Positions 9,748 through 30,476 of a stretch of 64,000 nucleotides of DNA are shown piece after piece. The first letter of the stretch is position 1, and every line of letters begins with the position of its first letter. This DNA comes from an uncultured Verrucomicrobiota bacterium (GTDB taxonomy: Bacteria; Verrucomicrobiota; Verrucomicrobiia; CAIQCK01), in NCBI GenBank assembly GCA_964524715.1, contig CAZGGF010000002.1:11630-75629 (forward strand), in the 5' to 3' direction. The translations under genes and the position numbers were made by a program. Below the pieces are notes generated by a model. The model was not told the origin of the DNA. It was given only the letters and a program-made list of their open reading frames with translations, and searched no databases.

Positions 9748-9756
9748 GGGAAAAAC

Positions 9757-12475: not shown

Positions 12476-12931
12476 AGTCTCGCGCCAAATCAGAAATACC
12501 GCCAGCGGCAAGCCCTCTGGGAAGTTGAAGCCGGGATGCTGCTTTGACCCATTTGGGCGTAGCTGGCAGCCCATTGCCAACGTCCTTGCATCTTTGGGTT
12601 GCGATGGGTTTTGGCATGGCTGACGCGTTTATTTGCGATTTGTGACGGCTTGCGACAGAAATCTGTGATAGATTTTAGCAAGATCTGGTATTCACAGCTT
12701 TTCGAAATTACGTAATTGCAATATTCAACCCATTCGTGGAGCGGCCTCAGTTTTCACCGCTTCCACTGTTTTCACCCCTCTTGCGAATCGTTCGTTCGTA
12801 GCGCCATCTGTCACTCGATCTTGGCCGGCGGCTTGCCAGGCTCGCTGCATGATTTGACCGGGTTGCGAAAACGAACAAATGACGGTGACACCGATCACAA
12901 CCCTTCTCCTTCACCCAACTGGATATAGCAC

Positions 12932-14329
12932 ATGCGTCAAGGAATAAAGCCATCCCATGTCCTCTGCCTCTACCCCTATGTGAAGGAGGTGCCCATTTAC
13001 GAGTTTTTCCCGCCCATCGGTCTCGAATATGTCGCGACCGCTGTCAGCGATATGGTGAAAAGCATCAGCATCGTGGATTCCAGATATGTAAAGGACCCGA
13101 TGAGTTGTTTCACTTCTTCGATTGATACCGCTCTGGTGAGCGTGAACTGGAATTATACATACGATGAAGTCTGCTCGGTGATACGGCAGATCCCATCGCA
13201 TATCAGGATCATCGTGGGAGGAAGGCAGGCCACGGATTGCGTCGAAGACCTGTTCCAGAGGTGTCCGAATATATCCGTCATCGTAAGGGGCGAAGGTGAA
13301 GCCACCACAAGGGATCTTTTCAGCGGGAGACCCTTGGAAGAAGTGAAGGGGATCTCGTACGTGAACGACGGAAAGGTCGTTCATAACGAATCCAGGCCCT
13401 TGTCTCCCGTTAGCGATGCAAAAAGACCGGACAGGAAACTCAGGACAACGGCCTACCGCGCCACCATCAGGGGGATTGACTTGGGGTTGAGTTTCGACGC
13501 CGTCATGAGTTCCCGGGGATGCCCTTACAAATGCAAGTTTTGCACCTTCAAGCTCAACCCTCTGGGACAGATGCGGACATGGGAGGCGAGAAGTCCCGAG
13601 TCCACCGTTGAAGAAGTTGAAGCCTTGGATGCGGATTTTGTCGCGTTTGTGGACGACAATTTTTCCGCCGACATGGACAGGGTTGAGGCCATCTGCGACC
13701 TCATTATTGCCAGAGGGATCAAGAAGATGTTCCTGTGCAACGTGAGGATTGACATCGCGCGGAGACCTGCATTGTTGGAGAAGATGAAAAAGGCGGGGTT
13801 CAAAGTCCTGATGGTAGGGCTGGAATCAGCCCAGGATAAGTCGCTGGTGGCAATGCAAAAGGGCTTTAAGACAAACACCGTGAGGGAGGCCTTCAAGGTG
13901 ATCGCGCGGTCCGGCATGTTGGTCAACGGATATTTCATTATCGGGGTCATCGGTGAGAGTGAAGACGAGATGCTCATGATCGCGCCCTATGCCAGCGAGA
14001 TAGGGCTGGATTTTATTTCACTCAACAGGCTCCGGTGGGAGAAATTCTCCCCGTTGGAGGATATCGTTAAAGCGACACCTGGATATTACATAGGTCAGGA
14101 CAATGGGATATACTCAGAGAAGTATGGCCGGAAGGAGCTGACCACCATCCTCAAGAGGATTCATCGGGAGTTTTACAGCCCCGGCCATGTCATGCAGATT
14201 TTGGGAAAGGCACTCAAGCTGGGCGTCCTTTCGCCTCGTCGGCTGTTCACATTGCTATACTATGTGCCCTACATTCTTCTTAAGACGAGCGCAAGCAAAC
14301 GAAGATTAAAGAAGATGATGAAGCGGTGA
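12932..14329 (+). CDS. B12-binding-domain radical SAM protein (copy 1)
   Basis: N-terminal B12-binding Rossmann region, then the radical-SAM cysteine motif SSRGCPYKCKFCTF. 465 aa. About 96% identical to the inverted copy at 51335-52732. Confidence 0.85.
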   Translation: MRQGIKPSHVLCLYPYVKEVPIYEFFPPIGLEYVATAVSDMVKSISIVDSRYVKDPMSCFTSSIDTALVSVNWNYTYDEVCSVIRQIPSHIRIIVGGRQATDCVEDLFQRCPNISVIVRGEGEATTRDLFSGRPLEEVKGISYVNDGKVVHNESRPLSPVSDAKRPDRKLRTTAYRATIRGIDLGLSFDAVMSSRGCPYKCKFCTFKLNPLGQMRTWEARSPESTVEEVEALDADFVAFVDDNFSADMDRVEAICDLIIARGIKKMFLCNVRIDIARRPALLEKMKKAGFKVLMVGLESAQDKSLVAMQKGFKTNTVREAFKVIARSGMLVNGYFIIGVIGESEDEMLMIAPYASEIGLDFISLNRLRWEKFSPLEDIVKATPGYYIGQDNGIYSEKYGRKELTTILKRIHREFYSPGHVMQILGKALKLGVLSPRRLFTLLYYVPYILLKTSASKRRLKKMMKR

Positions 14330-14532
14330 TCCGCAAAAACCGGCTGCCAAACCCGATTCACGTTTATCCCACACGGAACGAATCAGAACAAAAGATGATG
14401 CGCTTGGGGGGCTACCGTGGGAGGTGGTTGCAACCATCCGCAGACGACACCCGCTCTCATGGCCGCGCCTCGAACAATCTTGCCATGGGCTTGAAAGCGT
14501 GCCAATGTCCCTTTCGCTGAAGAAATGCCTGT

Positions 14533-14609
14533 CGGGGCGTAGCGCAGCTTGATAGCGCGCCTGCCTTGGGCGCAGGAGGTCCCGGGTTTAAATCCCGGCG
14601 CCCCGACCA
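14533..14609 (+). tRNA. tRNA-Pro (anticodon TGG)
   Basis: 77-nt cloverleaf with acceptor CGGGGCG/CGCCCCG, T-arm CCGGG-TTTAAAT-CCCGG, anticodon loop CTTGGGC and a 3' CCA. The 5' and 3' ends match the classic tRNA-Pro pattern. Confidence 0.85.
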
Positions 14610-14632
14610 TTTTGACAGGGGGAACCGTGTCG

Positions 14633-14642
14633 CCCCCCCCCC
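14633..14642 (+). repeat. C10 homopolymeric tract immediately 3' of tRNA-Pro
   Basis: CCCCCCCCCC, 24 nt after the tRNA CCA end. Confidence 0.7.
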
Positions 14643-14836
14643 TTCGCATCCCGCTACGCACTCGCTCGCTTGATAAACACCTGAACTGCGAACAGCGATG
14701 GAAGATGTTCGGCACGGCCACAATCAGTCCCCATTGCACAACCGCCGACCGTCAAATTCCGGTCATTTCTGCCACACACAGCGGCCCCTCTTGTGGTATT
14801 GCCAAACAGGTATACGTTACTCTCATAAGGTTGACC

Positions 14837-15124
14837 ATGAATGCTTCGGTATTCTGCCTCCACTGCGGTCAGTACCTGCGGTTCGACGAGGTCAAGGGGG
14901 GATCGGTGGTGCCATGTCCCAGATGCGGGACACGGCTGAGGGTTCCCACACCGTCACGTCCATATCTCGAACCCGTGCCGAAAATACCATCGATTTTCAT
15001 CGCCATGCGAATGCTCCTGCACATGGCGTTCTTCGCTGTGCTGGTCTACCTGTATTACGAAGGCGGGGTCGCTGGAAGGCTTTGGGCTTGGCTCCAACGC
15101 ATCCGCTATTTTCTCCCTTTTTGA
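14837..15124 (+). CDS. Small zinc-ribbon membrane protein
   Basis: MNASVFCLHCGQYLRF…VVPCPRCGTRLRV has two CxxC pairs, followed by a hydrophobic C-terminus. Confidence 0.4.
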   Translation: MNASVFCLHCGQYLRFDEVKGGSVVPCPRCGTRLRVPTPSRPYLEPVPKIPSIFIAMRMLLHMAFFAVLVYLYYEGGVAGRLWAWLQRIRYFLPF

Positions 15125-15240
15125 TCCTTCATATCCGCATGTTCTCAACAAACATCTTTCGTCCGGGAAATCAGATACTCTCCACCGATGACAATAACAC
15201 CTGGAAACAGTTGTCCAAAGGTCCCCTTCAGAAGAACGTT

Positions 15241-16086
15241 CTAGTGCTGGGAGCTTCGTCGAGGGAGAAGAGGTGAAGGAGTTCCTTTCGGTGACGCCAT
15301 GAGCGCTGCGAACCATTTCGCAGCCATCCTTTCCATGCCCACCTGGTTGGGGTGAACGCCATCAGGCAGGAGATCATCGGTCGTGATTGCAGCATGCATG
15401 TCCACGAGTGTGATGCGCTTGCCTGCGGCCTGCTGCGCGGCGACAATCGGGGGCAACGAGGCGTTGTAGGCATCCACCTTCTCCCAACCTGCGCGGGGTG
15501 CTTTCTGCGGGAGGATGGTGGCGACAAAAAGATGAGCGCCGCTTGTTTCGCCGATGGTGCGGATGAGCTTGTCGCGTGCCGGCGCATCGAAACCGTTCGC
15601 TCCGGACATAAGCAGAATCACGTCCGGCTGGTATTTCTTCAACACGTCAACGATGCCGGCAACCTTGATTTCTTTGATGCCTCGTGCCGCGAGCACATCG
15701 GTCGGTGTGGGCACGACTCCGCCCGTGAGGATGCGGGCGTTGCTAAAGCCCGCGAGTCCGTGGTGATCGGGGTCGAACATCGGATCAACAACTCCGTCAC
15801 GGCCAAAGGCGGCGTAGTTGAGTTCACCGACGAAATCATAGGCGACGCCCGCGGCGCGGAGTTTGTCCTGGAGTGCTTTCCGCCAACCACCGCCCTGCGG
15901 ATTCGGCAAGCCAGTGGCTTTGCCGTTTGCCTGCGCGAGGTAAGAGCCTCGCGTGATGCTGTCGCCGAGGGGTAAGATACGCAGGAGCTTTTCAGGCGGC
16001 ACGGCGACGCTCTTCGGCTCGGCTCCCTGCAACACGGCCAGCGGAACCAGCAGCAATGTAATGAGGAGGATGAGGGTGGGGTTCAT
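15241..16086 (-). CDS. Secreted SGNH/GDSL-family hydrolase
   Basis: Signal peptide MNPTLILLITLLLVPLAVLQG. Block I is LRILPLGDSITRG and block V is DGVHPNQVG. Confidence 0.7.
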   Translation of the reverse strand: MNPTLILLITLLLVPLAVLQGAEPKSVAVPPEKLLRILPLGDSITRGSYLAQANGKATGLPNPQGGGWRKALQDKLRAAGVAYDFVGELNYAAFGRDGVVDPMFDPDHHGLAGFSNARILTGGVVPTPTDVLAARGIKEIKVAGIVDVLKKYQPDVILLMSGANGFDAPARDKLIRTIGETSGAHLFVATILPQKAPRAGWEKVDAYNASLPPIVAAQQAAGKRITLVDMHAAITTDDLLPDGVHPNQVGMERMAAKWFAALMASPKGTPSPLLPRRSSQH

Positions 16087-16103
16087 GCCGGTGTCTGGAA
16101 GGG

Positions 16104-16784
16104 TTAGTGAGCAGTTGGGATGACGTGGACATCGTCTATTTCGATGCCCTTGGCACCTCCGTTCTGCATCCAGAGCAATTTGCGTTTGATTGCGTCGAAG
16201 TTGGGACGCTTCAGGGTACGAGACCAAATCCTGCCAGCGACGGACATCACCACCGACTCGCCCGAGAAAACGAGCTTCACCTCGCGCCAGATGTTGGCGG
16301 AGAGGTCAACTTTCTCGGCTGGGAAGTGCTCGTTGGTGCGGAAGGCTCCGCTGACCGGGTCGGCTTCGCGGGTGTTCTGGCGCTGGGGGTGCTTCGGATC
16401 CTTGGTGTGGGCGTCAACTTCCAGAACGATGGAGTCACGCAGGATTTTCACGCGGAGCATGTGATCGACACTGCCGTAACCGTCGTCCCCGTCCACGAAG
16501 AGCCAGAGCATGCCGTCGGAACTCAGGTGGCGATAGCGAAAGGAGATGGTCAAATCCTTGCCGTCCAGTGCGAGGTAGACCATCGGCGGGTATTTGCCGC
16601 CACTGCTGCCGTGGGTCCACATCACTCCGTCACGGATCTGCGTGTTTTTGTTGGGCAATGGCGTCAGGAAGCGCTTCGCGTCGAAGTCCGTGCCGAACGT
16701 CTCATGAACCGAAAACGTTTCCGAGGGCACAGCGGATCCGGCCAGCAGCATGACGATGAACATCAGTAACACATTTCGTTTCAT
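16104..16784 (-). CDS. Secreted hypothetical protein (weak DUF1080/concanavalin-like resemblance)
   Basis: Signal peptide MKRNVLLMFIVMLLAGSAVP. Beta-rich sequence. No firm motif. Confidence 0.4.
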   Translation of the reverse strand: MKRNVLLMFIVMLLAGSAVPSETFSVHETFGTDFDAKRFLTPLPNKNTQIRDGVMWTHGSSGGKYPPMVYLALDGKDLTISFRYRHLSSDGMLWLFVDGDDGYGSVDHMLRVKILRDSIVLEVDAHTKDPKHPQRQNTREADPVSGAFRTNEHFPAEKVDLSANIWREVKLVFSGESVVMSVAGRIWSRTLKRPNFDAIKRKLLWMQNGGAKGIEIDDVHVIPTAH

Positions 16785-17071
16785 GGTCGCCCCTTGGGCC
16801 AACGCATTGCGAGTTTCGAACCAGAATAATAAGGCCGATGGGCTGCAAATCCAGCTCGCAATGAAAGTGTTGTGGAAGGAATCGATGATTTGAACGGCAT
16901 TGACCGGGATATTGGAAAGAAGACCCACCTCCAAGTGTTGATGCAAGGTGCCGCGAATAAATAAAATGGTGGAGGCGGTGGGAATTGAATCCGTTCTTTT
17001 GGGCCGAATTTACGGGAATTGCGGGGTTTTTGAACAGTCGAAAAATCCAAAAAACGTAGGTTGGACCCTTC

Positions 17072-17126
17072 TTTTGTCACGTTTTGTCACGGCCTCGTGG
17101 AGGTGGGTATATGACCCACCCCCACG
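17072..17126. promoter_or_regulatory. att-like site: tandem TTTTGTCACG x2 direct repeat plus 13-bp palindrome
   Basis: TTTTGTCACG occurs twice at 17072-17091. It is followed by CGTGGAGGTGGGT-ATAT-GACCCACCCCCACG. The site lies immediately 3' of the excisionase-type gene. Confidence 0.4.
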
Positions 17127-17139
17127 TGACCGGATCGGA

Positions 17140-17439
17140 TCAGGGACGATCCAGTTTTGACAACGCAATCAGTCTAGGCTTCGGCCCTTGGTTCTCCGTT
17201 TGCAAACGGAGCACGTCGGTTTCCTTGAATCTAACCGCACCGCCTATTCGCACGATGGGAAGTTCCCCCGACTGGGCGAGCCTCTCAACCTTGCTAATGC
17301 TGATGCTCAAACGACTAGCTACTTCTGCCTTGCTCATCAACTGCGGCACCATGTTCGCCGGTGCCGCGTCTTCCATCTCCACCACTACATACTCAGCCTC
17401 GTGCCGAACTCGGCACGATTTACAGGTGACCGTCATCAT
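17140..17439 (-). CDS. Excisionase/AlpA-type helix-turn-helix (HTH_17) DNA-binding protein
   Basis: …LMSKAEVASRLSISISKVERLAQSGELPIVRIGGAVRFKETDV… is a typical Xis/AlpA HTH. The true start is probably internal (MVPQLMSK…). Confidence 0.6.
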   Translation of the reverse strand: MMTVTCKSCRVRHEAEYVVVEMEDAAPANMVPQLMSKAEVASRLSISISKVERLAQSGELPIVRIGGAVRFKETDVLRLQTENQGPKPRLIALSKLDRP

Positions 17440-17587
17440 ACCTATGCGAGGGATTGTCCTCTTCCAGCCGCAATCCCCGCCCTTTGTGGAAGAACGGGAG
17501 CAAGGTCACCACGAAGCGGACTGATCCAAATACAGGCTGGCAAAGGCCGGTCAATTTGGTGTTTTATTCACGAAGAAAGGCGCGATC

Positions 17588-18805
17588 GTGAAAAAACCTC
17601 ACCCGCAACCAGCAAAGCCGATAGATAGGCAAGCGCTAGCTGATGGCCTCGATATGTTGAACGATGAGGGCGAGGAAATGTCGGAGGGCCATGCTTGGGA
17701 AGATAACGCTCGCGTTCCCACAGTGCCCTTCTATCTGCCCGAAGAGCAGGAAGAGGATGGCGGGGGCGACAAAGACGAACGGAAGATCTTGGAACGCGAC
17801 GAAGCAAAGGCGTGGTTGCAGAAAGCCATGTTTTCGCCTCTGCGACAGGAATTCATTATCGCGAGAGTTTTCGACAGTTTGAAGGAGCCAGGGGGACTCG
17901 CGGACCGTTTCAAAAAAAAGGTCGAGTTTATTCAGAAACAGCTTAACGATCCGGCCATTAGAACCTACACTGCCATTTTGCGTCACTGTCGGCGGCGTTT
18001 TGTGCCACTGCCTCCCTTAGATCATAATGAACTGGGTTGGGAATTCACGCCTATCAGAGGTTTTCCGCTGCCGATTTCCAAGATGCTGGCAAAGCAACTC
18101 CTAAAACCTGCCAATCTACAACCGGAGGAAAAAGTCTGGACTGCTGGCAATAATTGCATCCCTTGGAGCCGGGCGATCACAAATCTATACGGTCTCAAGA
18201 TTGAAGGCAGTAGTGATGACACGCTTGAGGTCGGGATCGTATACGATGTCGGCTTTAAAATGCCGCCCAAGACTGCACAAGAAGTAATTGAATTGATTAA
18301 GACGCAGCCCGCACTGCTCTTGCACGACGAGTCAAAACAACTTCGGGAAGCGTTTGTAGACATTTTGGAAGCGGCAAACTACGGCGACTCAGCTCGACGT
18401 GTCAAAGGTATCGTTCCCTCCGGCACTCGAAAAGAGGTTATGGTTTTTGCCACGAAGGCCCTTAAACCGTTAGCGTCCGCACAGGCAGGGAATCGAGTGA
18501 GCTATCCCATTGGAATCCTGAGTCTGGTTCTTCGGTTCTTTTGGGGGAGAGTCTCGGAGCTTCAAGAGAGGTGGAAAAGACGAGAACCCGCCAAGGGTGA
18601 GGAGATTGCGGGAATCGCTCGTTTTCGGGAACTGCACGGGAAAGAGTTTGCAGACATTACGGACACGAGATTACTGCTGATTCTTACGGGGGAGGCAAAA
18701 ACAATTGCCGCAACATTGGCAGAAGAAGCAACCGGCCTCAGTGCGGAAGCTTTTCTGCGAGCACAACGTGATTGCGCCAAATTGAAGAATAAGCCAGCCG
18801 CGTAG
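17588..18805 (+). CDS. Hypothetical protein (ORFan, 405 aa) divergent from the xis-like gene
   Basis: GTG start with GAAAGG RBS. Acidic N-terminus. No recognisable domain and no tyrosine-recombinase motifs. Confidence 0.5.
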   Translation: MKKPHPQPAKPIDRQALADGLDMLNDEGEEMSEGHAWEDNARVPTVPFYLPEEQEEDGGGDKDERKILERDEAKAWLQKAMFSPLRQEFIIARVFDSLKEPGGLADRFKKKVEFIQKQLNDPAIRTYTAILRHCRRRFVPLPPLDHNELGWEFTPIRGFPLPISKMLAKQLLKPANLQPEEKVWTAGNNCIPWSRAITNLYGLKIEGSSDDTLEVGIVYDVGFKMPPKTAQEVIELIKTQPALLLHDESKQLREAFVDILEAANYGDSARRVKGIVPSGTRKEVMVFATKALKPLASAQAGNRVSYPIGILSLVLRFFWGRVSELQERWKRREPAKGEEIAGIARFRELHGKEFADITDTRLLLILTGEAKTIAATLAEEATGLSAEAFLRAQRDCAKLKNKPAA

Positions 18806-19216
18806 CCCTTTGGGCTGTTTATCGACATGGAGGCGAACACCTGAGGTTCGGCCTAGGGACCAATTCGACTGCCGGTTTAATGCGTGGGGAGAAGGGGGCT
18901 GCTTGTCTGCTGTCCATTAGGCCGGTAATTCCCACAACGTCTCCGTTACAGTTCCTAAGCCGTAATTCTCCTGCTGTTTATGCACAAGATTGACCAGTAA
19001 CAATGTCTCCTAGCTGACCAAATCCTCGAAACTCGTAGTCGTTCTCTTTCGACTCACGCCTATCAACGGGTCGCCAGTCGCTTCTTTCCGGCTCCTCCGT
19101 TCGCAGTTCTGCCGTATCCCCCCCAGGTTGTGGGAACAGAGTGACCATTCCCCCGATAGATAGAGACTGCATGCGCGGCGTGGTGCTGCGAACAAGCGGC
19201 CTCGGAAAAGGAAAAA

Positions 19217-20092
19217 GTGAAAAACGGAAACAATAGAAAGTTGGGCAGCGAACATGGTTCGACCGCCGCGCAAGCCGCGGTTTCCAATGCCGCGGAATCG
19301 CGCGAAACGAGCAACGCGACTAGCGCCGCTGTGGAGGCGGAACAACGTGCATCGACAACGTCGAATCAACCAGCAACTGCCCCTGCCACAGGAGGCGGTG
19401 GCGACATCATTGTCGCACACCCAGACCTGAGCGCCAAGGAACGGAAGACGGAGTTGAAGCGGTGCGAGAAGATCATCGCCGGTGGCTTCCAAGGCGCGTG
19501 GGAAGCGGGAAAGGCGTTGATTGCTATCAGGGATGGGAAGCTCTACTTGGGGTCTCACGACACGTTCGAGGACTACCTGCGCGACCGGTGGGGCATGGGG
19601 CGATCCCATGGTTACCGGTTAATTGCAGCCAGCGAGGTTGCGGACATCCTGTCTCCAACTGGAGACAGGGCGCAGCTTCCTGCTCATGAGAGCGTGCTTC
19701 GACCATTGGTTGGCTTGAAGGCCGAGGACGCACAGGCAGCCTGGAAATCTGCTGTCGCCAAGGCGGGAGACGGTCGTCCGGTTACCGCAAAGCTCGTGAA
19801 AGCGGCGGCGGCTGAATTCACGCCGATCAAGCCGAAGAAAACTACGACTCCTGCGGCTCAGCCCAACGGCGCGGAAAAGGCCAACGCGGAAAAACCCCAT
19901 CCGGAGGATGGAGAAGAGGAGGAACAGGAAAACGACAAGCCTTTGGATGTCGTTGAGTTGAAAAAGGCTCTTGGGCTGGTCAATGACATTGATCGACAGG
20001 TTCATGAAGGGGTGAACCGTAATACGATCCGGAATCTCGTGAACCAACTGCGACAGATCCTCATGGATCTGGCGGAGGACGCGCAGGGCTAA
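19217..20092 (+). CDS. DNA-binding protein with phage/plasmid-type (ParB/KorB-like) HTH
   Basis: …GSHDTFEDYLRDRWGMGRSHGYRLIAASEVADIL… is a motif common to plasmid/phage partition and replication-associated proteins. Low-complexity S/T/A-rich N-terminus. Confidence 0.5.
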   Translation: MKNGNNRKLGSEHGSTAAQAAVSNAAESRETSNATSAAVEAEQRASTTSNQPATAPATGGGGDIIVAHPDLSAKERKTELKRCEKIIAGGFQGAWEAGKALIAIRDGKLYLGSHDTFEDYLRDRWGMGRSHGYRLIAASEVADILSPTGDRAQLPAHESVLRPLVGLKAEDAQAAWKSAVAKAGDGRPVTAKLVKAAAAEFTPIKPKKTTTPAAQPNGAEKANAEKPHPEDGEEEEQENDKPLDVVELKKALGLVNDIDRQVHEGVNRNTIRNLVNQLRQILMDLAEDAQG

Positions 20093-20243
20093 CCAACGGG
20101 TGGCGCGGTCGTGCGTGAGAGGCATCGAACCCCACGCACGGCCACAGCCGCCGGATACACACCATAAATAATAATCACACAACGAAGTAATCGGTCCGGG
20201 CAGTCAGAGACGGCTGCCCAGACTACATGAAAGAAACCACTCT

Positions 20244-21224
20244 ATGAGCAAGAGCAAGATCAAGCGCAAGAAGCAAAATATAAATCAGGTCGACCAAGTC
20301 GCCCAAGCCAAGACCCTGGCGGAAGGCATCGTCGGAACCGTGCACTGGACCACAGACACTTTGGGCCATTGCACCTGCCCCGACGAACACTTACACAAGG
20401 CAAAGAGCGCCAGCCAGGATTGCAGCATCAAACTGGACGGCATGCCCAAGATCTCGTGCTTCCATCAGGACTGCAGGGACCCGGTTGCCGATACCACCGA
20501 ACAACTCCGGACCGCCTTGAAAGACGCTGGGATTCGTTTCGACGCGCAGGATTACAAGAAGAGCAAGGACGACAAGGCGCGGATCGAGGCCATTCGCAAG
20601 ATGGAGCGTCTCCACAAACGGACCGTGGCGCTGCAAGGTCGCGTCTTCAAGATCCACCGTTGGCCCTACGCCGATATTATAAAGGCGGCGCCAGTTCCGG
20701 CGAACGGCAAGCCCTCTGAGCACTGGAAGCTGCTGCTTAAGCTATTCAAGCCTGGCGACATCGTCTGGATTGGCGAGAAGGATGACAGCGGAAAAGCGCA
20801 ACACGCGAAGCACTTCAAGAGGGCCCAGGATTGGCTGAACGAGAAGAAGCCCTTCGGCCCCTTCATCTGCCCGTCTGCATTCAAGCCCGGCAGTGTATCG
20901 CGCTGCAATGACTGTGTGTCTGTCCGCCGGTTCCTCGTGGTGGGGGCGGACACAATCGATCGTGACCAGCTCGGTGCAGTCTTCCGATGGCTCCGGGACA
21001 AGGTAAAGTTGCCGCTTCACGCGATTGTGGAGGCGGCAGACAAGTCGATGCAAGGCTGGTTCGAATTCCCTGGGGCCGCTCATGCCGACGAACTGCGGAC
21101 GATCCTGCCTGCGCTGGGCTGCCAGGTTGATTTCTTCCGTCCGAGTCAGCCGTGCAATCTGCCAGGCTTCCCGGATGCAGAGGGAAGGCCAACGCGATTG
21201 GTTTACCTCGGGGAGATGAAATAA
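20244..21224 (+). CDS. Zinc-finger protein, putative primase (AEP/prim-pol-like)
   Basis: HCTCPDEHLHK…DCSIKLDG…ISCFHQDC is a metal-binding cluster. LVVGADTIDRD is a possible hhhDxD catalytic motif. It sits immediately upstream of the P-loop helicase gene. Confidence 0.4.
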   Translation: MSKSKIKRKKQNINQVDQVAQAKTLAEGIVGTVHWTTDTLGHCTCPDEHLHKAKSASQDCSIKLDGMPKISCFHQDCRDPVADTTEQLRTALKDAGIRFDAQDYKKSKDDKARIEAIRKMERLHKRTVALQGRVFKIHRWPYADIIKAAPVPANGKPSEHWKLLLKLFKPGDIVWIGEKDDSGKAQHAKHFKRAQDWLNEKKPFGPFICPSAFKPGSVSRCNDCVSVRRFLVVGADTIDRDQLGAVFRWLRDKVKLPLHAIVEAADKSMQGWFEFPGAAHADELRTILPALGCQVDFFRPSQPCNLPGFPDAEGRPTRLVYLGEMK

Positions 21225-22543
21225 TGAACAGGCCAAGCACAGTGTTGCCTCTGCCGGAGGTTTACTACGATCACCAGCGGAAGCAGTTCTACGTCCAAGA
21301 CAAACAGGGGGACTGGATCATCTTCAGCCAGTGTGATGTCGAACGCTACTTGAGGGACATCGGCTATTCCATCAAGAGGTCTGGTTCCGAGAACTCCGAG
21401 GTGCACGACTGCATTCTCAACATCCAGCGTGAACAGAACATCGCCTACGCTGGATCGCTGGCGGGGTATTCGAAGGGCTGCTATGAAATCCAAGGCAACC
21501 GCATCCTCGTCACCACCTCGCCCAAGTTGATCGTGCCACAGCCGGGTGATTGCCCCCTCCTGCGCAGGTTGTTTGATGGACTGTTAATTGATGGAGCGAC
21601 GGACCAGCGGCCCTACGTGTTTGGCTGGCTGAAGGTCGCCGTTGATTCTCTCTACTCGGGTGAACTGCGTCCTGGACAGGCGTTGGTATTGGCCGGCGTA
21701 AGGGACTGCGGCAAATCGCTGCTCCAGAACCTCATCACCATCATGCTGGGGGGCCGCTCAGCCAAGCCCTACCAGTTCATGACGGACAGGACCGCCTTCA
21801 ACGCAGACCTGTTCGAGGCGGAGCACCTGATGATTGAGGATGAGCCAGCCTCCAAGGACATCCGCGCCAGGCGCGCCTTCGGCAATACGATCAAGCAGAT
21901 CACGGCGGCCGACGTGCAGCGCTGCCATGCGAAGAACCGCCAGGCGCTCTCGTTGACCCCGTTCTGGCGGATTACGGTGTCAGTCAACAGCGAGCCAGAG
22001 AACCTCATGGTGCTGCCTCCCTTGGACGAAAGCATCGAGGACAAGCTGATTATCATCAAGGCAATGAAAGTACCGATGCCGATGCCCACGACAACGCCAG
22101 CCCAGAGAAAGGAATTCTGGAACAGGCTCATCCAGGAACTGCCCGCCTTTGTCCATCATTTGCAGACGATGGAGATACCTGAAACACTGAGGCACGGCCG
22201 GTTTGGCGTCATTCACTTCCACCACCCCGAACTCGTTGCAGCCATCAACAGTGAGTCGCCCGAAGAGATCCTTTTGGCGCTGATTGACGCCAGATGCTTC
22301 GATGAAGGCGATGCTGTATGGACAGGCACGGCGGAAGTCTTGACGGCCCGCCTGACCGACCAAAGCGCCAAGTCATCCCGTACGGCGAACCAACTGCTGT
22401 CCCACCCGTCAACGTGCGGCCACTATTTGGGCCGCTTGCGCACTCGTTACCCTCACAGGTTCTCTCAAGGCAGGGATCGCAATGCCCGGGTCTGGACCAT
22501 TCACGCTCCAGATCATCTGCAGCCCCGGGAAGGGCAGGGGTGA
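21224..22543 (+). CDS. Phage/plasmid primase-helicase P-loop NTPase (D5_N/DUF5906/VirE-like)
   Basis: Walker A is ALVLAGVRDCGKSLLQNLITIMLGG. Walker B-like is HLMIEDEP. The architecture matches primase C-terminal NTPases of satellites and phage-plasmids. Confidence 0.6.
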   Translation: MNRPSTVLPLPEVYYDHQRKQFYVQDKQGDWIIFSQCDVERYLRDIGYSIKRSGSENSEVHDCILNIQREQNIAYAGSLAGYSKGCYEIQGNRILVTTSPKLIVPQPGDCPLLRRLFDGLLIDGATDQRPYVFGWLKVAVDSLYSGELRPGQALVLAGVRDCGKSLLQNLITIMLGGRSAKPYQFMTDRTAFNADLFEAEHLMIEDEPASKDIRARRAFGNTIKQITAADVQRCHAKNRQALSLTPFWRITVSVNSEPENLMVLPPLDESIEDKLIIIKAMKVPMPMPTTTPAQRKEFWNRLIQELPAFVHHLQTMEIPETLRHGRFGVIHFHHPELVAAINSESPEEILLALIDARCFDEGDAVWTGTAEVLTARLTDQSAKSSRTANQLLSHPSTCGHYLGRLRTRYPHRFSQGRDRNARVWTIHAPDHLQPREGQG

Positions 22544-22559
22544 CACCGTCACAGTAGAT

Positions 22560-22925
22560 CGCACGCTCCCATTGGTTGACACGACTCTGCCAGACTGCCA
22601 GATACTTTATACCCTCTATTCATTCATTTAATAACAACCCAACTACGTAATAATACCTATAGCTAATAACTACCTATGTAAGACGTGTAGAATAGTCTGG
22701 CAGTCTGGCAGTGGGTTGTTGACATGCGCTGTGGGTACCTGGGTCACATATCTTATTCCGGGTCTTTACTAAGTATGGCGCTTATAGTTAGGCCGTCCAT
22801 TTGCCAACGTAGTACGTTGTGCTATATTAATACTCTATAGAGACTAGAGACTCTCTATAAGTGCAGTGAAGAGTCAGAGTAGATAGTCTCTTGACAGGTC
22901 GAGAGACCTGTGGTAAGTTGCAGTA
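22560..22925. promoter_or_regulatory. AT-rich ori-like/regulatory region with iterons, inverted repeats and an operator-overlapped promoter
   Basis: 15-bp inverted repeats CTGCCAGACTGCCAG (22587) and CTGGCAGTCTGGCAG (22697) flank an AT-rich stretch of about 90 bp. Each repeat contains a CTGCCAGA x2 iteron. TATAGAGAC-TAGAGAC-TCTCTATA lies at 22833-22860. TTGACA(22891)-17nt-TAAGTT carries the CAGGTC-GAGA-GACCTG palindrome in its spacer. Confidence 0.45.
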
Positions 22926-23012
22926 CGACTTAAAGCAGGACCGCTTACTTGTCCCGCCTAGATTGATGCTTCGGATGTTTCGAGCATCCCAACTTCAGAT
23001 ACCCCGTGCCGT

Positions 23013-23801
23013 ATGTATTTATTACGGCGCGCTCTTGCACATGGACAGCAAGCGCCGCGTGCAAGCGATTCGAAGACTGCACAGCGTAATATGAACAACG
23101 TAACGAATAGTAATAACGGCGTCGGCAAAGCCCAGACCACGGTGGAGACAGGCGCAGCCACCAACAATGATACATTGGCAAAGACCGATGCTCCCAAGAC
23201 AAGCATCGGAGATAAGAAGCCAGCGACCCCCAAGGGCAAATCCAAGAAACGCGCCAAGGCTAACCGCGCACCCATCATGGTGGACCAAGAAACAGCCGAC
23301 AGGATGGCAATCGCAAGCGTATACGATGCTCTGTTGGGGCACGCCCCAGGTAACAGCGCTGGCGACAATGCAGGAGCAGCATTTGATTCAGTGACACTGA
23401 TGGCACTGGAAATGGAAGCACGCAGGGAGGGAGGTGAAGCGTGGAAGGCAGATGAATGGGTGTCAATTGGGGACGGGTATATCCGCATGGACATGTATGA
23501 GGAGGCTCTTCACGCCTATCAACGCGCTTACGAAATAGCCCCGGAACAGATCTATACTCAGATGCAACTTGCTGCCGCCTACCTCGAGTTGGAAAGAGCA
23601 GACGAGGCTTACCCGTTGCTGATGGATGTAACAGAAGAGGAAGTTGAACAAGTGGGCTTCAAGTATTGGGTCACTCTAGCCAGGTGCTATTATCTCCTAG
23701 GTCGGCACGAAGATGTCAGAACCGCAGTAAAGAAAGCCTTGGAATATGAAGATGAACACCCCGAATGCAGGACACTACTTAAATTAGCGGGGCTCCTGTA
23801 A
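23013..23801 (+). CDS. TPR-repeat protein with low-complexity basic N-terminus
   Basis: C-terminal TPR-like helices (…YEEALHAYQRAYEIAPEQIYTQMQLAAAYLELERADEAY…). Lower GC than the flanks. The start may be the internal ATG at 23093. Confidence 0.45.
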   Translation: MYLLRRALAHGQQAPRASDSKTAQRNMNNVTNSNNGVGKAQTTVETGAATNNDTLAKTDAPKTSIGDKKPATPKGKSKKRAKANRAPIMVDQETADRMAIASVYDALLGHAPGNSAGDNAGAAFDSVTLMALEMEARREGGEAWKADEWVSIGDGYIRMDMYEEALHAYQRAYEIAPEQIYTQMQLAAAYLELERADEAYPLLMDVTEEEVEQVGFKYWVTLARCYYLLGRHEDVRTAVKKALEYEDEHPECRTLLKLAGLL

Positions 23802-23983
23802 CGGATCGAATACAGTAACGCGATAAGGATTCCTTGATGAGCGGAGCAAAAGGACCCATGAACAACGTGAAGATACAGCACTCAGCACCAACTATAGGTA
23901 AGGGTTCTTCCTCTCTCGATCATACACCCCTGGCCGCCGGGGGTTAACACGCGCGGCATCGTAGTAACTCGAAGGACAATACA

Positions 23984-24631
23984 ATGAAAGACGAAGACAA
24001 ATCACATACAGGGGCAGAACAAGGAAAGGGCTACTCTGGTGACCAGCCAGAGGACGGTGTCTCAAGCGCAAGTGACCGCAAGCCACATTACCTGAGCCCG
24101 CGCTACATACGGATGGCCGCGGTGATGATCATTGGGGAGTGCGTTGGTGGAAGGTTGCTAACTCTCCGGTTGCCGCTAACTGGAAAAGAATGCTCCGGTG
24201 GAACCGGGGTTGGAGAAGCCGATGGGCGCAACACCGAGCTGCAGTTCATACCCAAAGACGCAGCCACAACACTGCTTGGCGAGTACATTGAGACATGGAA
24301 GAGGCAAGTTGCTTCGGGTGAACTCACCAAGCTATTCGAGATGTATGGCGGCTGTGGATGTCAGTTGCTGGGCGCCACGCCAACTTCAGACTTCTGTGCG
24401 AGTAAACGGCGCGTGTTGTTGGCCGTGCTGAATGACCCGGTGGTTCATAGAGCCATCCTGATCTGCGCTGAATCACTGCACAAGGTAGTTGAACGAGAAA
24501 GCCCGTTCATCCTGCACAGGCCGCACATTGAGCGGCTGTGTAATACGTGTCTGGAGTTCGGTGAGCTGGTAGTGCCCACCGTGCAGGAAGATTGGATCAC
24601 ACAAATGTTAAGGATATACACGAAGGGATAA
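23984..24631 (+). CDS. Hypothetical protein (ORFan)
   Basis: 215-aa ORF in the lower-GC block. No recognisable domain. Confidence 0.4.
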   Translation: MKDEDKSHTGAEQGKGYSGDQPEDGVSSASDRKPHYLSPRYIRMAAVMIIGECVGGRLLTLRLPLTGKECSGGTGVGEADGRNTELQFIPKDAATTLLGEYIETWKRQVASGELTKLFEMYGGCGCQLLGATPTSDFCASKRRVLLAVLNDPVVHRAILICAESLHKVVERESPFILHRPHIERLCNTCLEFGELVVPTVQEDWITQMLRIYTKG

Positions 24632-24736
24632 ATGCTGCGTTGGGGTGGGGGGCGGATCCACATTCATACTGGCGTATTGCTATGAGCTGCGCAGGCGCCA
24701 GGGATTCCGCCCTCCACGTTTCAGCAAGAGACATCG

Positions 24737-26056
24737 ATGAATACACATAACTATAGATTGCCCGGCCGCGGGCGAAACAATCGCGGCCAAAGACGTAAGA
24801 GTGAGAATAGCATTATGAAGAATACAAGCAACAAGGCAGTAGGCACCGGGACCAAACAAGTCCTGAACGTGGCGGACAGTGGTGCCCCCGCCAATGTTGA
24901 TAGTGGAAAGACAACGAACGAAGAACATAACCGCGCCAAACGCTGGTTCCTTAAGATATGCGTAGAAGCTGGTATCTCCCCCAAGGAGTTCTGGCTGCTG
25001 GACGAAATGCTCGACATGCCGACCAAGTACTCCAGGAATCGTGGATACGCTCCCTGGGCGTTTACGGCGGAGCAACTGTCAGAGATGCTGGAGGACAAGC
25101 GCAGAATAGAGGCGCATGACAAGCGGTACGAACAGGTCTCACTGGCGGCCATTCAACAGGTGATGGACAAGCTCTTCGACGGACGAAAGCTCGATGCTGA
25201 TCGTGTGATTTCGCATATCCACATTCACCGCGCCGGCCTCGATGAAGTCGATAAGGCTGGCCGCCAGGTTAGGTTGCCCGTCTACACGTTCTGGAGCAAC
25301 CCGGAAGAGCGGAAGAATGGGTGTGCGAAATACAAGGCCATGACGTTTAGCGAGAAAGAGGTTCAGGAGGCTGAGAAGGAGATCAAGGCGGAGCTTCATG
25401 CAAGGTCCTGTGACGTTGCGGCCTATGCCCGGAAAGAAATGAGGAGAAAGCGGTCCAAGATCCGGGAGAACTCCCGCGTTGTACTGGACAAGGAATTCGA
25501 GGGCCTGAATGAGAGGGCGAGGGTCTTCCTTTGTCGGGATGAGTACTGGAACAACTACTCCCGGCGCCTGCAGAAAGAACATGGCATAACAGCCGAGGAG
25601 TGCAGAGTGTTGGAATGCCTAACGAGTCTTGACTGGCGCTGTGGCCATACGATGAATGACCTGGCGGCCTACGTTAACCAGAGCACGGCCAACAAACTCC
25701 ATCCATCGAAGTGGCCAGAGGCAAAGTTCATCACCGGCGAGGAAGTTAGGGCGATCTTGCAGAAGCTTTGGAACAAGAAGGGTTCTGGCGGCTCAGTCGA
25801 GTTTGGCGATTGCTGGATATCCTGTGATGAATCCGCGCGGACAGACGAACACGGCGAGAGTGCAACACTCGATGGCTGTTCCATAAGCCCCAACTTCAAT
25901 AACTGGTTATTGCTGGAACTCCACGCTTACGAGGCGGAGATCATCAGGGGCAGCCTGGTGAAGACGGCCTCGGGTGACTGGGTAATGCTGGATACAGGTG
26001 AGGTGGCGTTCAAGGGCGAAGCCAAGCCCAGTGAGCCACTGAAGGCTGCTGCTTAG
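24737..26056 (+). CDS. Hypothetical protein (ORFan, 439 aa)
   Basis: Long ORF with coding-like composition in the lower-GC block. No recognisable domain. Confidence 0.45.
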   Translation: MNTHNYRLPGRGRNNRGQRRKSENSIMKNTSNKAVGTGTKQVLNVADSGAPANVDSGKTTNEEHNRAKRWFLKICVEAGISPKEFWLLDEMLDMPTKYSRNRGYAPWAFTAEQLSEMLEDKRRIEAHDKRYEQVSLAAIQQVMDKLFDGRKLDADRVISHIHIHRAGLDEVDKAGRQVRLPVYTFWSNPEERKNGCAKYKAMTFSEKEVQEAEKEIKAELHARSCDVAAYARKEMRRKRSKIRENSRVVLDKEFEGLNERARVFLCRDEYWNNYSRRLQKEHGITAEECRVLECLTSLDWRCGHTMNDLAAYVNQSTANKLHPSKWPEAKFITGEEVRAILQKLWNKKGSGGSVEFGDCWISCDESARTDEHGESATLDGCSISPNFNNWLLLELHAYEAEIIRGSLVKTASGDWVMLDTGEVAFKGEAKPSEPLKAAA

Positions 26057-26845
26057 TAAAACGAACGCAGAAGGATGCCCGGAACCAAAGTTGCTGTACT
26101 TGAACCCGGAGGCAGATGGAATTCCTATCGCGAACAGAATACCAAAGCCACAGGTGAGTGAGGATGTTGGCGTTGTTCTTCTCAAGGCGGCGTGATGCAA
26201 CAAATGAGCGTTATCGAGTAACTAACTAGTCGGTAGGAGGCGGGCCCCAACCTCATGCTTCACTATGGACCAATACGGTTCTTCCATAGTGATGGGGGTC
26301 CGCCTTCCTATTTGTTGAAGATCAATCTACCAGGTCGTCCAAAGAAGCAGCATCCTTCATACGTTATAAGAGAGGTGCCGCTTTATCGTCGTCGGTACCC
26401 AATGTCACCAATTGGCGACACTCTCAAGAAGCCCATCCTGCCCCCGTCAGCCACACAGACCGACTATGGCATGGTCATGTGGGAATGGACTTGGTCGGAG
26501 ACATCAATACGTGAATCCCCCTCCAACATCTTGAATAATCCTCAAAACAAGGCTGAAAGCGGCGATAGATGGGTTCTTACAGCTCTCTTCGTAAGTGTCT
26601 CATAAACTCACGGTTAAGAGCTGCCCTTACTCCGCACAGTTTCGATATGTTACACTGCTCTTATAGGGGGGCGGGTAATCACTCCTTTTCACACATTGGC
26701 ACTTCCTGCGGTGCCGTTATGACGAGCAAGGGAGGAGCAAGAGCAATTCAACCTGGGATTCCGAAAGGATTTGATTTGAGGGGCCAAGATGAAAAGTATC
26801 ACCGAGGCTGGAAGGGGTTGGCTTGCCACGTCCCTGACCTTGCCA

Positions 26846-26913
26846 CCGTCGATGTGGGCCTGAACTGAGTTCGGACGGATTGTGGGATCTGTGGCGTCCG
26901 TCTCGTTGAAATA
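26846..26913 (+). repeat. ~70-nt structured repeat, copy A
   Basis: GTCGATGTGG…CTGAACTGAGTTCGGACGGATTGTGGGATCTGTGGCGTCCGTCTCGTTGAAAT. It shares TGAG-TTCGGACGGAT-N-TGGCGTCCG-N-GTTGAAA with the copies at 30046 and 51149. Confidence 0.55.
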
Positions 26914-27305
26914 TTGGTGACCGGGTGCTTTCTGTTTGATTGCCGATGCTATCTTCAGCGATTTTGATATGCTATGCAACCTCTGGAAGCTCGACTATTC
27001 TGAATGCCCAAGCAGCCGTTCGTGGTTTGGCTGAGTATCTGACACATGAAAGGCCAAATACGATGCAATGTCGAAAGGTTGGCACTTCCCGGAAGCGACC
27101 CTGTGGTGGGACATCTTTCCGAAGCGAGCTAAGAACGTGGTCTCCATGCGCAAACACAAAGTCGCAGCCTGATTCTCTGGCTGTCGAAACTCCCGCGTAA
27201 GCCAGCTTACGAAAGTTGAGGCGGAGCGGTTTTGGGCACGGCGACCGGCTTCGGGTTTACAAGTTACCCGTTAGTCGATAATCCGGACCTGTTGTTTCGC
27301 TAAGC

Positions 27306-27560
27306 CTAGTGCGAAACGCCCTCGTTGCGGCAAGGCCACGACAAGTCTTGAAACTGGCGGGCCTTGCCGACGGAGTTTGTCGCCGAAGCTGGAAAGAGCG
27401 CGGCGAACGTCCTGTTCATCGAGCGATGAGTCTCTAATCTTGCTCCGCCAGTCAATTGAAATATCACGGGGTATTGTCGCAATGAATTGGATGCGCCATT
27501 GTTCGACAGCATCGGCGAGTTCCTTGATCCCCGCGAACGGTGGACGTCAAGGGTGAGTTT
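27306..27560 (-). pseudogene. Frameshifted gene remnant (unknown family)
   Basis: Two minus-strand frames join to give …FHHLPGLDGLFFIETAWKKSGDKLTLDVHR / GIKELADAVEQWRIQFIATIPRDISIDWRSKIRDSSLDEQDVRRALSSFGDKLRRQGPPVSR…, a coherent peptide broken by a frameshift near 27540. Confidence 0.3.
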
Positions 27561-27623
27561 ATCGCCGCTCTTCTTCCACGCGGTCTCGATGAAGAATAAT
27601 CCGTCCAGACCGGGCAGGTGGTG

Positions 27624-27706
27624 AAACTGAACTGAACTGAACTGATAGGAAATTGCTTTTGACGCCCAGATCACGCTTGCACAGGGGGGGGGGGATTTCC
27701 TATCAG
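27624..27706. repeat. Simple-sequence cluster: (AACTG)x4, a 12-bp inverted repeat and a G11 tract
   Basis: AACTG occurs four times in tandem at 27625-27644. CTGATAGGAAAT (27642-27653) is the inverted partner of ATTTCCTATCAG (27695-27706). The 41-nt loop between them contains GGGGGGGGGGG (27684-27694). The cluster lies 10 nt 3' of the minus-strand gene that ends at 27713. Confidence 0.7.
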
Positions 27707-27712
27707 TAAACG

Positions 27713-29990: not shown

Positions 29991-30045
29991 GATGAATCGG
30001 GAGATGGGACTCCTATGTCAGATTCCAGTTGTTGCAGACGCCCCT

Positions 30046-30123
30046 GCTGTCGATCTGGTTGACGTGAGCAAAAACTGAGGTTCGGACGGATTGAGGCGTC
30101 TTTGGCGTCCGCCAGGTTGAAAC
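30046..30123 (+). repeat. ~70-nt structured repeat, copy B (leader of the ATPase cassette)
   Basis: TGTCGATCTGGTTGACGTGAGCAAAAACTGAGGTTCGGACGGATTGAGGCGTCTTTGGCGTCCGCCAGGTTGAAAC. Confidence 0.55.
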
Positions 30124-30281
30124 AGGAGAGACCGACGGTTTCACTTCATTGCAGTTCGGACGAGTATTCCGCCAGCTTGAAGCGCGCCGTAAGAAAATCC
30201 TTGCTGGCGTTTTCCCTCGGAGCGACACTCGGCGCACAACACAGAGCAGACGATGATGGCGGCAACGTGAATGCAAAGCAA

Positions 30282-30476
30282 ATGATCCCGACGCCCCAGA
30301 TTGCGAAAGCGCCAGATGTTCCGGCACAAGTTTTCGAGCAATTTCTTGCAGAGCTTGCGGGTGCTGGCGTCCCAGAAGAAGTGGTAATGCGATTGCGCAA
30401 GACTCTCGTGGAAGATCGGGCGTTCGGCGAGATGGCCCTGAAAAAGGCCGTTCTCGGAGAGGAAGCGGCTTCGTGA
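30282..30476 (+). CDS. Small protein translationally coupled to the SMC-like ATPase
   Basis: MIPTPQIAKAPDVPAQVFEQFLAELAGAGVPEEVVMRLRKTLVEDRAFGEMALKKAVLGEEAAS. Its stop TGA overlaps the GTG start of the next gene (GTGA). The open frame extends upstream to a TTG at 30102 inside the repeat, so the start is uncertain. Confidence 0.35.
   Translation: MIPTPQIAKAPDVPAQVFEQFLAELAGAGVPEEVVMRLRKTLVEDRAFGEMALKKAVLGEEAAS

Follow-up and report, generated by a model that had tools for sequence, protein, structure and literature searches.

In this study, a 64,000-nt stretch of contig CAZGGF010000002.1 from an uncultured Verrucomicrobiota bacterium (hereafter the window; GC 55.4%) was analyzed, and the segment that probably spans ~16967 to ~27172 was interpreted as a decaying copy of a small integrative element which a tyrosine integrase had inserted into the 3' end of ssrA, the transfer-messenger RNA (tmRNA) gene. 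We put the probability of this reading at about 0.72. The element is chromosomally integrated and carries its own replicon, comprising xis, a primase-like protein, an initiator-type helicase and an iteron origin (Table 1); it is an ordinary decaying island and not a new kind of integrase-free element. A previous reading of the same DNA (the sequence-only reading) had proposed an integrase-less island next to tRNA-Pro, with a helper-dependent satellite or phage-plasmid, a decayed element and an element with an unrecognised recombinase as the options. The second of these three fits best, in view of a short integrase remnant and of the integrases found in relatives.

The left end of the element is marked by a 3' fragment of ssrA, which on the + strand reads TGGTGGAGGCGGTGGGAATTGAATCC, the reverse complement of the T-loop-to-CCA end of the gene. 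The 23-mer TTCAATTCCCACCGCCTCCACCA within it occurs once in the window. More than 118 loci were recovered when one genome per species was scanned with TTCAATTCCCACCGCCTCCACCA. This 23-mer makes up the final 23 nt of the ARAGORN-called tmRNA in eight Verrucomicrobial loci (L005, L019, L040, L048, L049, L065, L072 and L081), ends the tmRNA in every Verrucomicrobial locus with an ARAGORN gene call, and also ends ARAGORN-called tmRNAs in loci of other phyla. The T-stem partner is absent upstream of the fragment, and no other tmRNA sequence was detected in the 64 kb by ARAGORN, Rfam or blastn with seven Verrucomicrobial tmRNAs (the Rfam e-value scans covered 16800-17500 and 26800-27800), so it is regarded as a fragment and not as a gene. 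Islander defines a displaced fragment of the target gene as the mark of an island end (PMC4383910), and such a displaced 3' fragment is present at one end here. From its sequence, the fragment is read as the displaced ssrA 3' end marking the end of the island, and its orientation puts the island to the right. A pyruvate kinase gene (8716-9747, - strand; Pfam PK, 394 bits) lies 7 kb to the left of the fragment; a longer + strand open reading frame (ORF) at 8830-10173 was rejected as a gene, the true gene being the pyruvate kinase on the minus strand. In a Verrucomicrobia metagenome-assembled genome (L040, 710-2922), a 90%-identical orthologue of this gene is located 0.8 kb from the ssrA 3' end. 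Since ssrA adjoins the pyruvate kinase orthologue there, the fragment in the window probably marks the ancestral ssrA neighbourhood. L040 was also the best relative in the empty-site comparison, which recovered no genome close enough for the purpose; it shares with the window only the pyruvate kinase gene.

The element was once inserted into the tmRNA gene, not into tRNA-Pro, which had been named as the insertion site and whose 3' end had been expected to recur as a direct repeat. Neither the last 26 nor the last 16 nt of tRNA-Pro is repeated anywhere in the window, and the next 2.4 kb, with a lipase gene and a secreted-protein gene, is as host-like in codon usage as the best core genes of the window. 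Because the genes of 14610-16966 are host-like and the tRNA 3' end is unrepeated, the mobile content does not start at tRNA-Pro; the tRNA is a bystander, and it forms ordinary chromosome together with the next two genes. The genes flanking the element, for a 280-aa protein and a ceramidase-like protein, are likewise host-like in codon usage. The ceramidase-like gene (27713-29245) is strongly so, and its contrast with the atypical cargo ORFs supports an element end near 27172, beyond position 26100, where the island had previously been taken to stop.

None of the large ORFs of the window was found to encode a complete recombinase of the tyrosine or serine type, or a structural or packaging protein, and Phage_integrase matched none of the ORFs scanned. 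At the right end of the element, the last 26 codons and the stop of a tyrosine integrase are left. The peptide EATLWWDIFPKRAKNVVSMRKHKVAA aligns over 27092-27169 with the integrase C-terminus DAAAWWSISPKQAENIVPMSRQRATA of a related locus, L134 (11/26 identities, 17/26 positives; E 0.002-0.005, whole window searched), and both end at a stop codon. The tail A-x-x-W-(W/F)-x-I-x-P of the remnant is also present in an integrase adjacent to ssrA in L065. In-frame stops occur just upstream of the remnant, and no other integrase similarity was detected in the window; ORF116 and ORF99, which were considered as further integrase remains, showed none. On the simplest reading of these sequences, an L134-type integrase gene formerly stood here and deletion has left 26 codons of it; the remnant probably marks where the element, or a decayed copy adjoining it, ends on the right. 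The integrase-less state is accordingly ascribed to decay.

Genomic contexts were readable for nine relatives of the replication module. A tyrosine integrase is encoded 2-8 kb upstream of the primase-helicase genes, on the same strand, in L001, L003, L004, L134, L145 and L146, that is, in 6/7 of the informative relatives; L002, cut by a contig end, and L136, a phage-like contig, are uninformative in this respect. Relatives of the module are compact elements of ~6-12 kb. L134 encodes a helicase and a primase with 66% and 53% identity, respectively, to those of the window, and in L065 and L081 ssrA is directly followed by a tyrosine integrase homologous to that of L134. L002 has the closest helicase (68% identity) and the same left end, with a degenerate ssrA-like fragment and paired direct repeats.

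Table 1. Position and character of the features in and around the element.
Feature	Position	Strand	Remarks
tRNA-Pro(TGG)	14533-14609	+	Sole tRNA gene called in the window
GDSL-type lipase gene	15241-16227	-	Downstream of tRNA-Pro; host-like codon usage
Secreted protein gene, without family match	~16104-16784	-	Host-like codon usage
att-arm region	16923-17132	.	Core-like motifs, paired direct repeats, imperfect palindrome
ssrA (tmRNA) 3' fragment, att scar, read as left element end	16967-16992	-	16967-16989 exact; 25/26 over 16967-16992
xis, excisionase-family helix-turn-helix (MerR-like HTH_17), 99 aa	17140-17439	-	TIGR01764, PF12728, phrog_66
405-aa protein without family assignment	17588-18805	+	Divergent from xis; codon usage atypical
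291-aa probable DNA-binding protein	19217-20092	+	Core ~residues 66-215; motif W-G-x-G-R-S-H-G-Y-R-L-I
Primase-like protein, 326 aa	20244-21224	+	N-terminal Cys/His zinc ribbon and AEP (Prim-Pol/VirE-N-like) domain; predicted fold
DUF5906 P-loop helicase, 439 aa	21224-22543	+	P4-alpha C-terminal/D5-like group; PF19263
Replication origin (predicted)	22587-22891	.	Inverted iteron pairs and second repeat cluster
Cargo genes	23013-26868	+	TPR protein and ORFs of 215, 439, 116 and 99 aa
Tyrosine-integrase remnant	27092-27172	+	Last 26 codons and stop; similarity to L134 integrase C-terminus

Around the ssrA fragment, further features resemble an attachment (att) region. Core-like motifs of the form ACCCACC(T/C)CCA are located at 16923-16933 (+), 17098-17108 (-) and 17114-17124 (+), and ACCCACCTCCA, allowing up to one mismatch, has three matches in the 64 kb, all of them inside these 200 bp (region 16923-17132). 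A tandem repeat of TTTTGTCACG (two copies, 17072-17091; CGTGACAAAACGTGACA when read on the ssrA strand) lies 3' of xis. A single instance of the pattern CGTGACA-N2-6-CGTGACA is present in the window, against none expected by shuffling, and one of 149 fetched loci has it, namely L134, where it stands between the 3' end of a tRNA and the start of the tyrosine integrase gene. The paired CGTGACA repeats adjoin a tRNA or tmRNA 3' end in both the window and L134, and their sequence and placing suggest that they serve the att region as arm-type binding sites. Also 3' of xis is an imperfect palindrome (17090-17132), which has 19-nt arms with 84% complementarity and a perfect 7-bp core. The two repeats and the 13-bp palindrome previously placed beside xis were thus found again, the palindrome in this longer and imperfect form.

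Part of this palindrome (17095-17123, -) reads GGGGGUGGGU-CAUAU-ACCCACCUCC-ACGA on the xis-sense strand and forms a mini-helix resembling the acceptor arm of tmRNA or tRNA-Ala, with G-U as the third pair and A as the discriminator. It gave a partial match to the Rfam tmRNA acceptor stem (E 0.0013 in a 700-nt search), and could be a degenerate duplicated att core, the xis terminator, or a coincidence.

The sequence-only reading had listed an AlpA/Xis-type helix-turn-helix gene, a protein with a DRWG...SHGYRLI motif, a zinc-finger primase-like protein, a P-loop primase-helicase and an AT-rich region with paired iterons after the helicase, and all of these were recovered at the positions given in Table 1. 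The xis product scored 40.5 bits with TIGR01764 and 39.6 bits with PF12728 (HTH_17), above both curated cut-offs (28.8 and 27, respectively), and matched phrog_66 at E 1e-10. On a Logan contig (L137) the encoded protein is 100% identical and 12/12 nucleotide differences are synonymous third-position changes; since all 12 are synonymous, the comparison indicates that xis is under purifying selection.

The primase-like protein is rich in Cys and His and, from its AlphaFold model (pLDDT 86), is predicted to consist of a zinc ribbon followed by an archaeo-eukaryotic primase (AEP)-type domain. Five BFVD fold matches were obtained at E<=1e-3 (1e-6 to 2e-4; probability 1.0), the best being mostly unannotated proteins of uncultured phages, with one annotated as Virulence associated protein E; weaker matches (E 0.03-0.07) were VirE-like, Prim_Pol and Primase C-terminal 2 proteins. 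N-terminal domains of primase-helicases were also among the folds matched. The best PDB matches, to the LigD polymerase domain (an AEP) and to human and archaeal primases, were weak (E 0.04, TM 0.3). In an alignment of the window protein with 22 homologues, which has 106 conserved columns, the window protein deviates at 26 of these, compared with 0-6 for most members. Five motif residues are substituted (E234G, D263E, H270Q, D294Q and R305N): the family sequences VVESDT, DTAGKSLHGWF, CD and QPVRLPG are VVGADT, EAADKSMQGWF, CQ and QPCNLPG, respectively, in the window. At three of these columns the window protein has G234, Q270 and Q294, whereas 22/23 family members, as well as L002 and L134, have E, H and D; L002 and L134 are the nearest relatives of this primase and keep the conserved motifs. 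From the motif pattern, these columns would correspond to AEP motifs I-III (acidic, histidine, acidic), whose conserved residues the window protein lacks.

The start codon (ATG) of the helicase gene shares one base with the stop codon of the primase gene. The helicase matches Pfam PF19263 (DUF5906) at 29.2 bits, above the cut-off of 27.6, and has both Walker A (GVRDCGKS) and Walker B (MIEDE) motifs. Matches to TIGR01613, phrog_1156 and phrog_1829 were weak; the score with TIGR01613, the P4-family primase model, was 24.8 bits against a cut-off of 108.7. With deviations at 5/125 conserved columns the helicase is within the range of its family, and judged by sequence both helicase and xis look intact. 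By analogy, the helicase is presumed to be an origin-binding, self-loading replicative helicase. More than 1,142 homologues with ~50% identity were collected, some of them fused to VirE_N or CHC2 primase domains. Neither 50,697 phage records nor 72,556 plasmid records gave a tblastn match to the helicase; a 47%-identical copy is carried by a phage-like IMG/VR contig (L136), and metagenome and viral scans returned 11 and 2 loci, respectively, all distant.

The predicted origin starts 44 nt past the helicase stop codon. Two copies of CTGCCAGA at 22587-22602 are inverted relative to those at 22696-22711 across a 93-nt spacer of 30% GC, and these four copies are the only ones in the 64 kb on either strand. 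The second cluster, at 22839-22891, consists of two AGAGACT repeats and an inverted partner. The same layout, with inverted pairs of two TGCCAGGG copies around an AT-rich spacer, follows the helicase gene directly in L134 (5520-5631) and L002 (3701-3815), and in L003 two copies of TGCCTCAC lie just 3' of the helicase gene. The origin layout is therefore kept in L134, L002 and L003, while the iteron sequence shifts around a common TGCC core. Origins of Staphylococcus aureus pathogenicity islands (SaPIs) have their iterons directly downstream of rep, with an AT-rich centre and at least two oppositely pointing iterons on each side (PMC9371898). The window thus agrees with the pri-rep-ori arrangement in its layout, an iteron origin directly 3' of the helicase gene, and not in sequence membership. 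By analogy, the origin would be served by self-loading of the initiator helicase together with a separate primase.

Downstream of the origin are the cargo genes, the first of which encodes a TPR protein (23013-23801) with Pfam TPR matches. The ORFs of 215, 439, 116 and 99 aa had no match in Pfam, PHROG, NCBIfam or PADLOC, and the absence of PADLOC matches led us to reject defence genes as the cargo. Codon usage is atypical in the genes for the TPR protein, ORF215, ORF116 and ORF99; cargo GC (53.1%) is marginally below that of the window. Of the composition shift and the three ORFans of 45-55% GC previously described here, the atypical codon usage of several genes was borne out, but the first ORFan is the TPR protein and the GC difference is only a marginal dip. 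No PHROG or Pfam match among the cargo ORFs pointed to packaging, capsid interference (terS, cpm, ppi) or a helper-responsive repressor. The earlier suggestion of a satellite or phage-plasmid may hold for the family, but nothing in the window copy, which has neither packaging or capsid-redirection genes nor PHROG matches in the cargo, supports it.

In an intact relative, the integrase, aided by Xis, would recombine attP with the terminal part of a tRNA or tmRNA gene, attP carrying the last ~23 nt of the target gene with CGTGACA arm repeats flanking it. After excision, the helicase would bind the inverted iteron pairs downstream of its own gene, melt the AT-rich spacer and load itself, and with the AEP-type primase it would start theta-type replication of the circle, as in the pri-rep-ori of SaPIs and other phage-inducible chromosomal islands (PICIs). 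The window copy would no longer be able to excise by itself, and the priming of its own replication has probably been lost.

Several points weigh against this interpretation. No second att core was found in the window at up to three mismatches, and the 64 kb holds no intact, regenerated ssrA sharing the core at the other end. A GAGGCGG-containing stretch at 27215-27240 was considered as the second core and rejected, its likeness being at chance level. The probable right boundary is placed by the 26-aa integrase remnant and by codon usage only; GC and codon differences are weak, and the primase and helicase genes themselves are host-like. That the primase-like protein of the window copy is probably catalytically inactive is deduced from motif loss. 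The remnant lies on the + strand and points away from the ssrA scar. In L134, L065 and L081 the replication block has the opposite orientation with respect to the att scar, a difference that calls for one or more rearrangements or for a hybrid origin; as candidate events that would restore synteny, we considered inverting either 8716-16966 or the 37 kb between two radical-SAM repeats. In L137, xis has 96% nucleotide identity to the window and the neighbouring ORF 81%, a mosaicism that suggests recombination between elements. Finally, neither L002 nor L143/L144 (the latter recorded in 19 contigs) has an integrase within 10 kb of its intact-looking primase-helicase genes, and the 10 kb to the right in L002 are also without a tmRNA; from these loci, the absence of a nearby integrase may not always mean decay.

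One alternative is an intact, helper-dependent element, either a satellite or a cis-mobilisable element, which would receive its integrase in trans from a resident relative or phage and use its own helicase and origin. The selection on xis, the intact look of the helicase and origin, the retention of the arm-type repeats, and the loci without integrase within 10 kb (L002 and L143/L144), whose primase motifs are yet intact, would all suit such an element. It would nevertheless need a second recombination partner, and the window has a single att core; the integrase pseudogene remnant indicates loss by deletion and not absence by design, and it is only in the window copy that the primase motif residues are lost. 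Genes for packaging, capsid redirection or mobilisation were not found in the window element, and its cargo is without match to known or candidate defence systems. We therefore consider trans-mobilisation unlikely, and decay of an ssrA-inserted element the better explanation.

Less probable still is that the ssrA fragment is the far end of an island of more than 47 kb extending to the right, with integrase and ssrA beyond the window and with the remnant derived from an unrelated older element. The lack of ssrA in the window, the fragment orientation, which puts the intact gene to the right, and the length of the source contig (97.8 kb, extending past the window) are consistent with this, as are a defence-like ABC ATPase, an IS630 transposase and a cluster with a PD-(D/E)XK nuclease and a ligase to the right. 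The same region, however, contains ceramidase-like, squalene-hopene cyclase and AcrB/MFP efflux genes of strongly host-like codon usage, and the relatives of the module are compact. Both this explanation and trans-mobilisation are accordingly rated below decay of a small element.

The 405-aa protein, which had been put forward as a candidate recombinase, had no match in Pfam, PHROG, NCBIfam, PADLOC or PDB sequences, and its AlphaFold model (pLDDT 44) is unusable; the acidic N-terminus is probably disordered and the C-terminal half helical. Only two homologues were found. P0145 (74% identity) occupies the same position, divergent from xis, in L137, a contig too short to judge the presence of an integrase; P0146 (36% identity over the C-terminal half) belongs to an element in L140 with its own tyrosine integrase. 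An unrecognised recombinase in the 405-aa or the 439-aa ORFan, both of them sizeable and without detectable family and the former adjoining xis and the att region, is highly improbable and is not needed, as the only readable homologue of the 405-aa protein stands beside an ordinary tyrosine integrase, helicase relatives usually lie downstream of an ordinary tyrosine integrase, the tRNA/tmRNA 3' core, arm repeats and integrase remnant point to a classical tyrosine integrase, and the protein is predicted to be mostly helical and disordered with no confident fold.

The 291-aa protein had been labelled ParB-like, a label that finds no sequence support: neither the protein nor a profile of its 52-sequence family matched Pfam, NCBIfam, PHROG or PDB sequences. 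A ParBc or ParB-type HTH domain, a partner ParA and parS would be expected for ParB, Spo0J or KorB; these searches gave no such domain, and the element lacks ParA. The core domain defines a very large family (11,709 cluster representatives with E<=1e-3; 4,866 with E<=1e-10), with the consensus IRD.RLYR..H.TFE.YCR.RW..GRSHAYRLI.AAEV...L.P.G.P..E.Q.RPL over ~140 aa (proteins P0148-P0296). The family appears to be without a Pfam model or a solved structure detectable by sequence. Homologues annotated as hypothetical proteins are present on Nostoc and Streptomyces plasmids; the homologue on Actinomadura pAGRA3207_1 overlaps the end of the parA gene, whereas those on cyanobacterial plasmids do not adjoin parA.

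Other observations were made on related loci and on the DNA around the element. In L143/L144 (7263-12633), genes for an HTH_17 protein, a 128-aa protein, an AAA_25 ATPase, an AEP primase with intact motifs and the helicase were recorded, in this order, in 19 contigs from several samples. The 10 kb on each side of this related element lack an integrase, and a tRNA-Gly is located 3 kb to its left. An inverted repeat of 1,414 bp with 93% nucleotide identity (12917-14330, +; 51334-52747, -) consists of two genes for B12-binding radical-SAM proteins (465 aa, 96% protein identity); it brackets 37 kb including tRNA-Pro and the whole element, and could invert this segment or confuse the assembly. An intergenic repeat of 60-100 nt is present in three copies with 75-82% identity (26869-26927, 30035-30138 and 51135-51238), one of them directly upstream of the integrase remnant; it shows a CGGACG...CGTCCG hairpin followed by GTTGAAA, has no Rfam family match, and could be a small-RNA or terminator motif or resemble repetitive extragenic palindromic or miniature inverted-repeat transposable elements. 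Between the remnant and the ceramidase-like gene (27625-27696) are four tandem AACTG repeats and, ~40 nt on, a run of 12 G.

Further to the right, a few kb from the element, an 817-aa ABC/SMC-type ATPase is encoded at 30473-32926 (+). Its N- and C-terminal ATPase halves match models of anti-phage defence proteins (mad3 of MADS, 1e-20; PtuA of Septu; LmuB of Lamassu), and it may belong to a defence system. The gene at 34049-34492 (+) encodes a lysine-rich protein of 115 aa, without Pfam match, in which the motif MSAAGRA-IAAA---RWAK is duplicated; the gene and ~95 nt past its stop have 81% nucleotide identity to L002 12184-12630 within otherwise unrelated DNA, and it lies 8.6 kb downstream of the helicase in L002 and 11.5 kb downstream in the window. 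It could be part of the element, mobile in its own right, or a conserved gene of the host. An IS630-family insertion of 1,061 bp (55786-56846, within 55619-56900) carries a DDE_3 transposase gene (56022-56834) and imperfect terminal inverted repeats (CACCTGTCCACTAG.../...CTTAGTGGACAGATGAC). It sits in a second copy of a sequence (49133-49348) found just upstream of a sigma-54 activator gene; the flanks match 49198-49298 and 49294-49348 at 100% identity, and a short target duplication is present. Another cluster of mobile appearance, at the right end of the window (57223-63396), comprises genes for an HTH_3 repressor-like protein (-), a Sel1-repeat protein, a PD-(D/E)XK nuclease and an ATP-dependent DNA ligase with WGR, interspersed with ORFs without family match.

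Among known systems, the module would function like the pri-rep-ori replicon of SaPIs and PICIs (Ubeda et al. 2007/2012, summarised in PMC9371898) and, more distantly, like P4 alpha and its origin. With SaPIs and PICIs the window element has in common the chromosomal island form, int/xis-type integration, and a separate primase gene followed by an initiator helicase gene and, directly downstream, an inverted-iteron origin. It differs in that its helicase has no PHROG match to SaPI Rep but a DUF5906 match and weak P4-type similarity, its host is Verrucomicrobia-like, a terS/packaging module and a Stl-type repressor are lacking, its integrase has been destroyed, and its AEP-type primase appears to be dead. 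Satellite phage P4 likewise has a D5/P4-alpha-like P-loop helicase (a weak TIGR01613 match in the window), an AlpA/Xis-type HTH protein, a small stable-RNA gene whose 3' end is the integration target, and iteron-type origin recognition by the helicase protein. In P4, however, alpha is a single fused TOPRIM primase-helicase, whereas the window primase is separate and AEP-type; none of the sid, psu, delta or cos-type functions was detected in the window element, and its inverted iteron pairs directly after the gene contrast with the P4 ori/crr. Replicons combining an AEP and an SF3-type helicase (pRN1 ORF904, NrS-1-type and VirE-type phage proteins) share the AEP-fold domain, for which the BFVD matches of the window protein were phage proteins of this kind, and the P-loop helicase, but in the window these functions are on two polypeptides and the AEP motif residues are substituted. 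By integration target, the element belongs with the Islander ssrA islands (PMC4383910; e.g. CP4-57 of E. coli), which also use the ssrA 3' end and leave a displaced fragment, although neither an intact, regenerated ssrA nor the integrase is present in the window.

For annotation, the locus shows that the nearest tRNA is not necessarily the att site, the island end here being set by a 23-nt tmRNA fragment invisible to tRNA finders, and that in "integrase-less" islands a search for short remnants of an integrase should precede any appeal to a new mechanism of recombination. It is unlikely, though conceivable, that the helicase family, with more than 1,100 metagenomic members and none in the phage and plasmid collections searched, represents a lineage of small integrative elements with their own replication that has not been described so far, present in Verrucomicrobiota and in other phyla of the environment. 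Integrase-free copies (the window element, L002 and L143/L144) would then persist with xis, helicase and origin still in use, by trans-mobilisation through the integrase of a relative or by host co-option. The locus provides a Verrucomicrobia-type example of the SaPI-like order of primase, initiator helicase and inverted-iteron origin, and iterons with the TGCC core could help to locate origins in related elements and to construct replicons for phyla that are genetically intractable.

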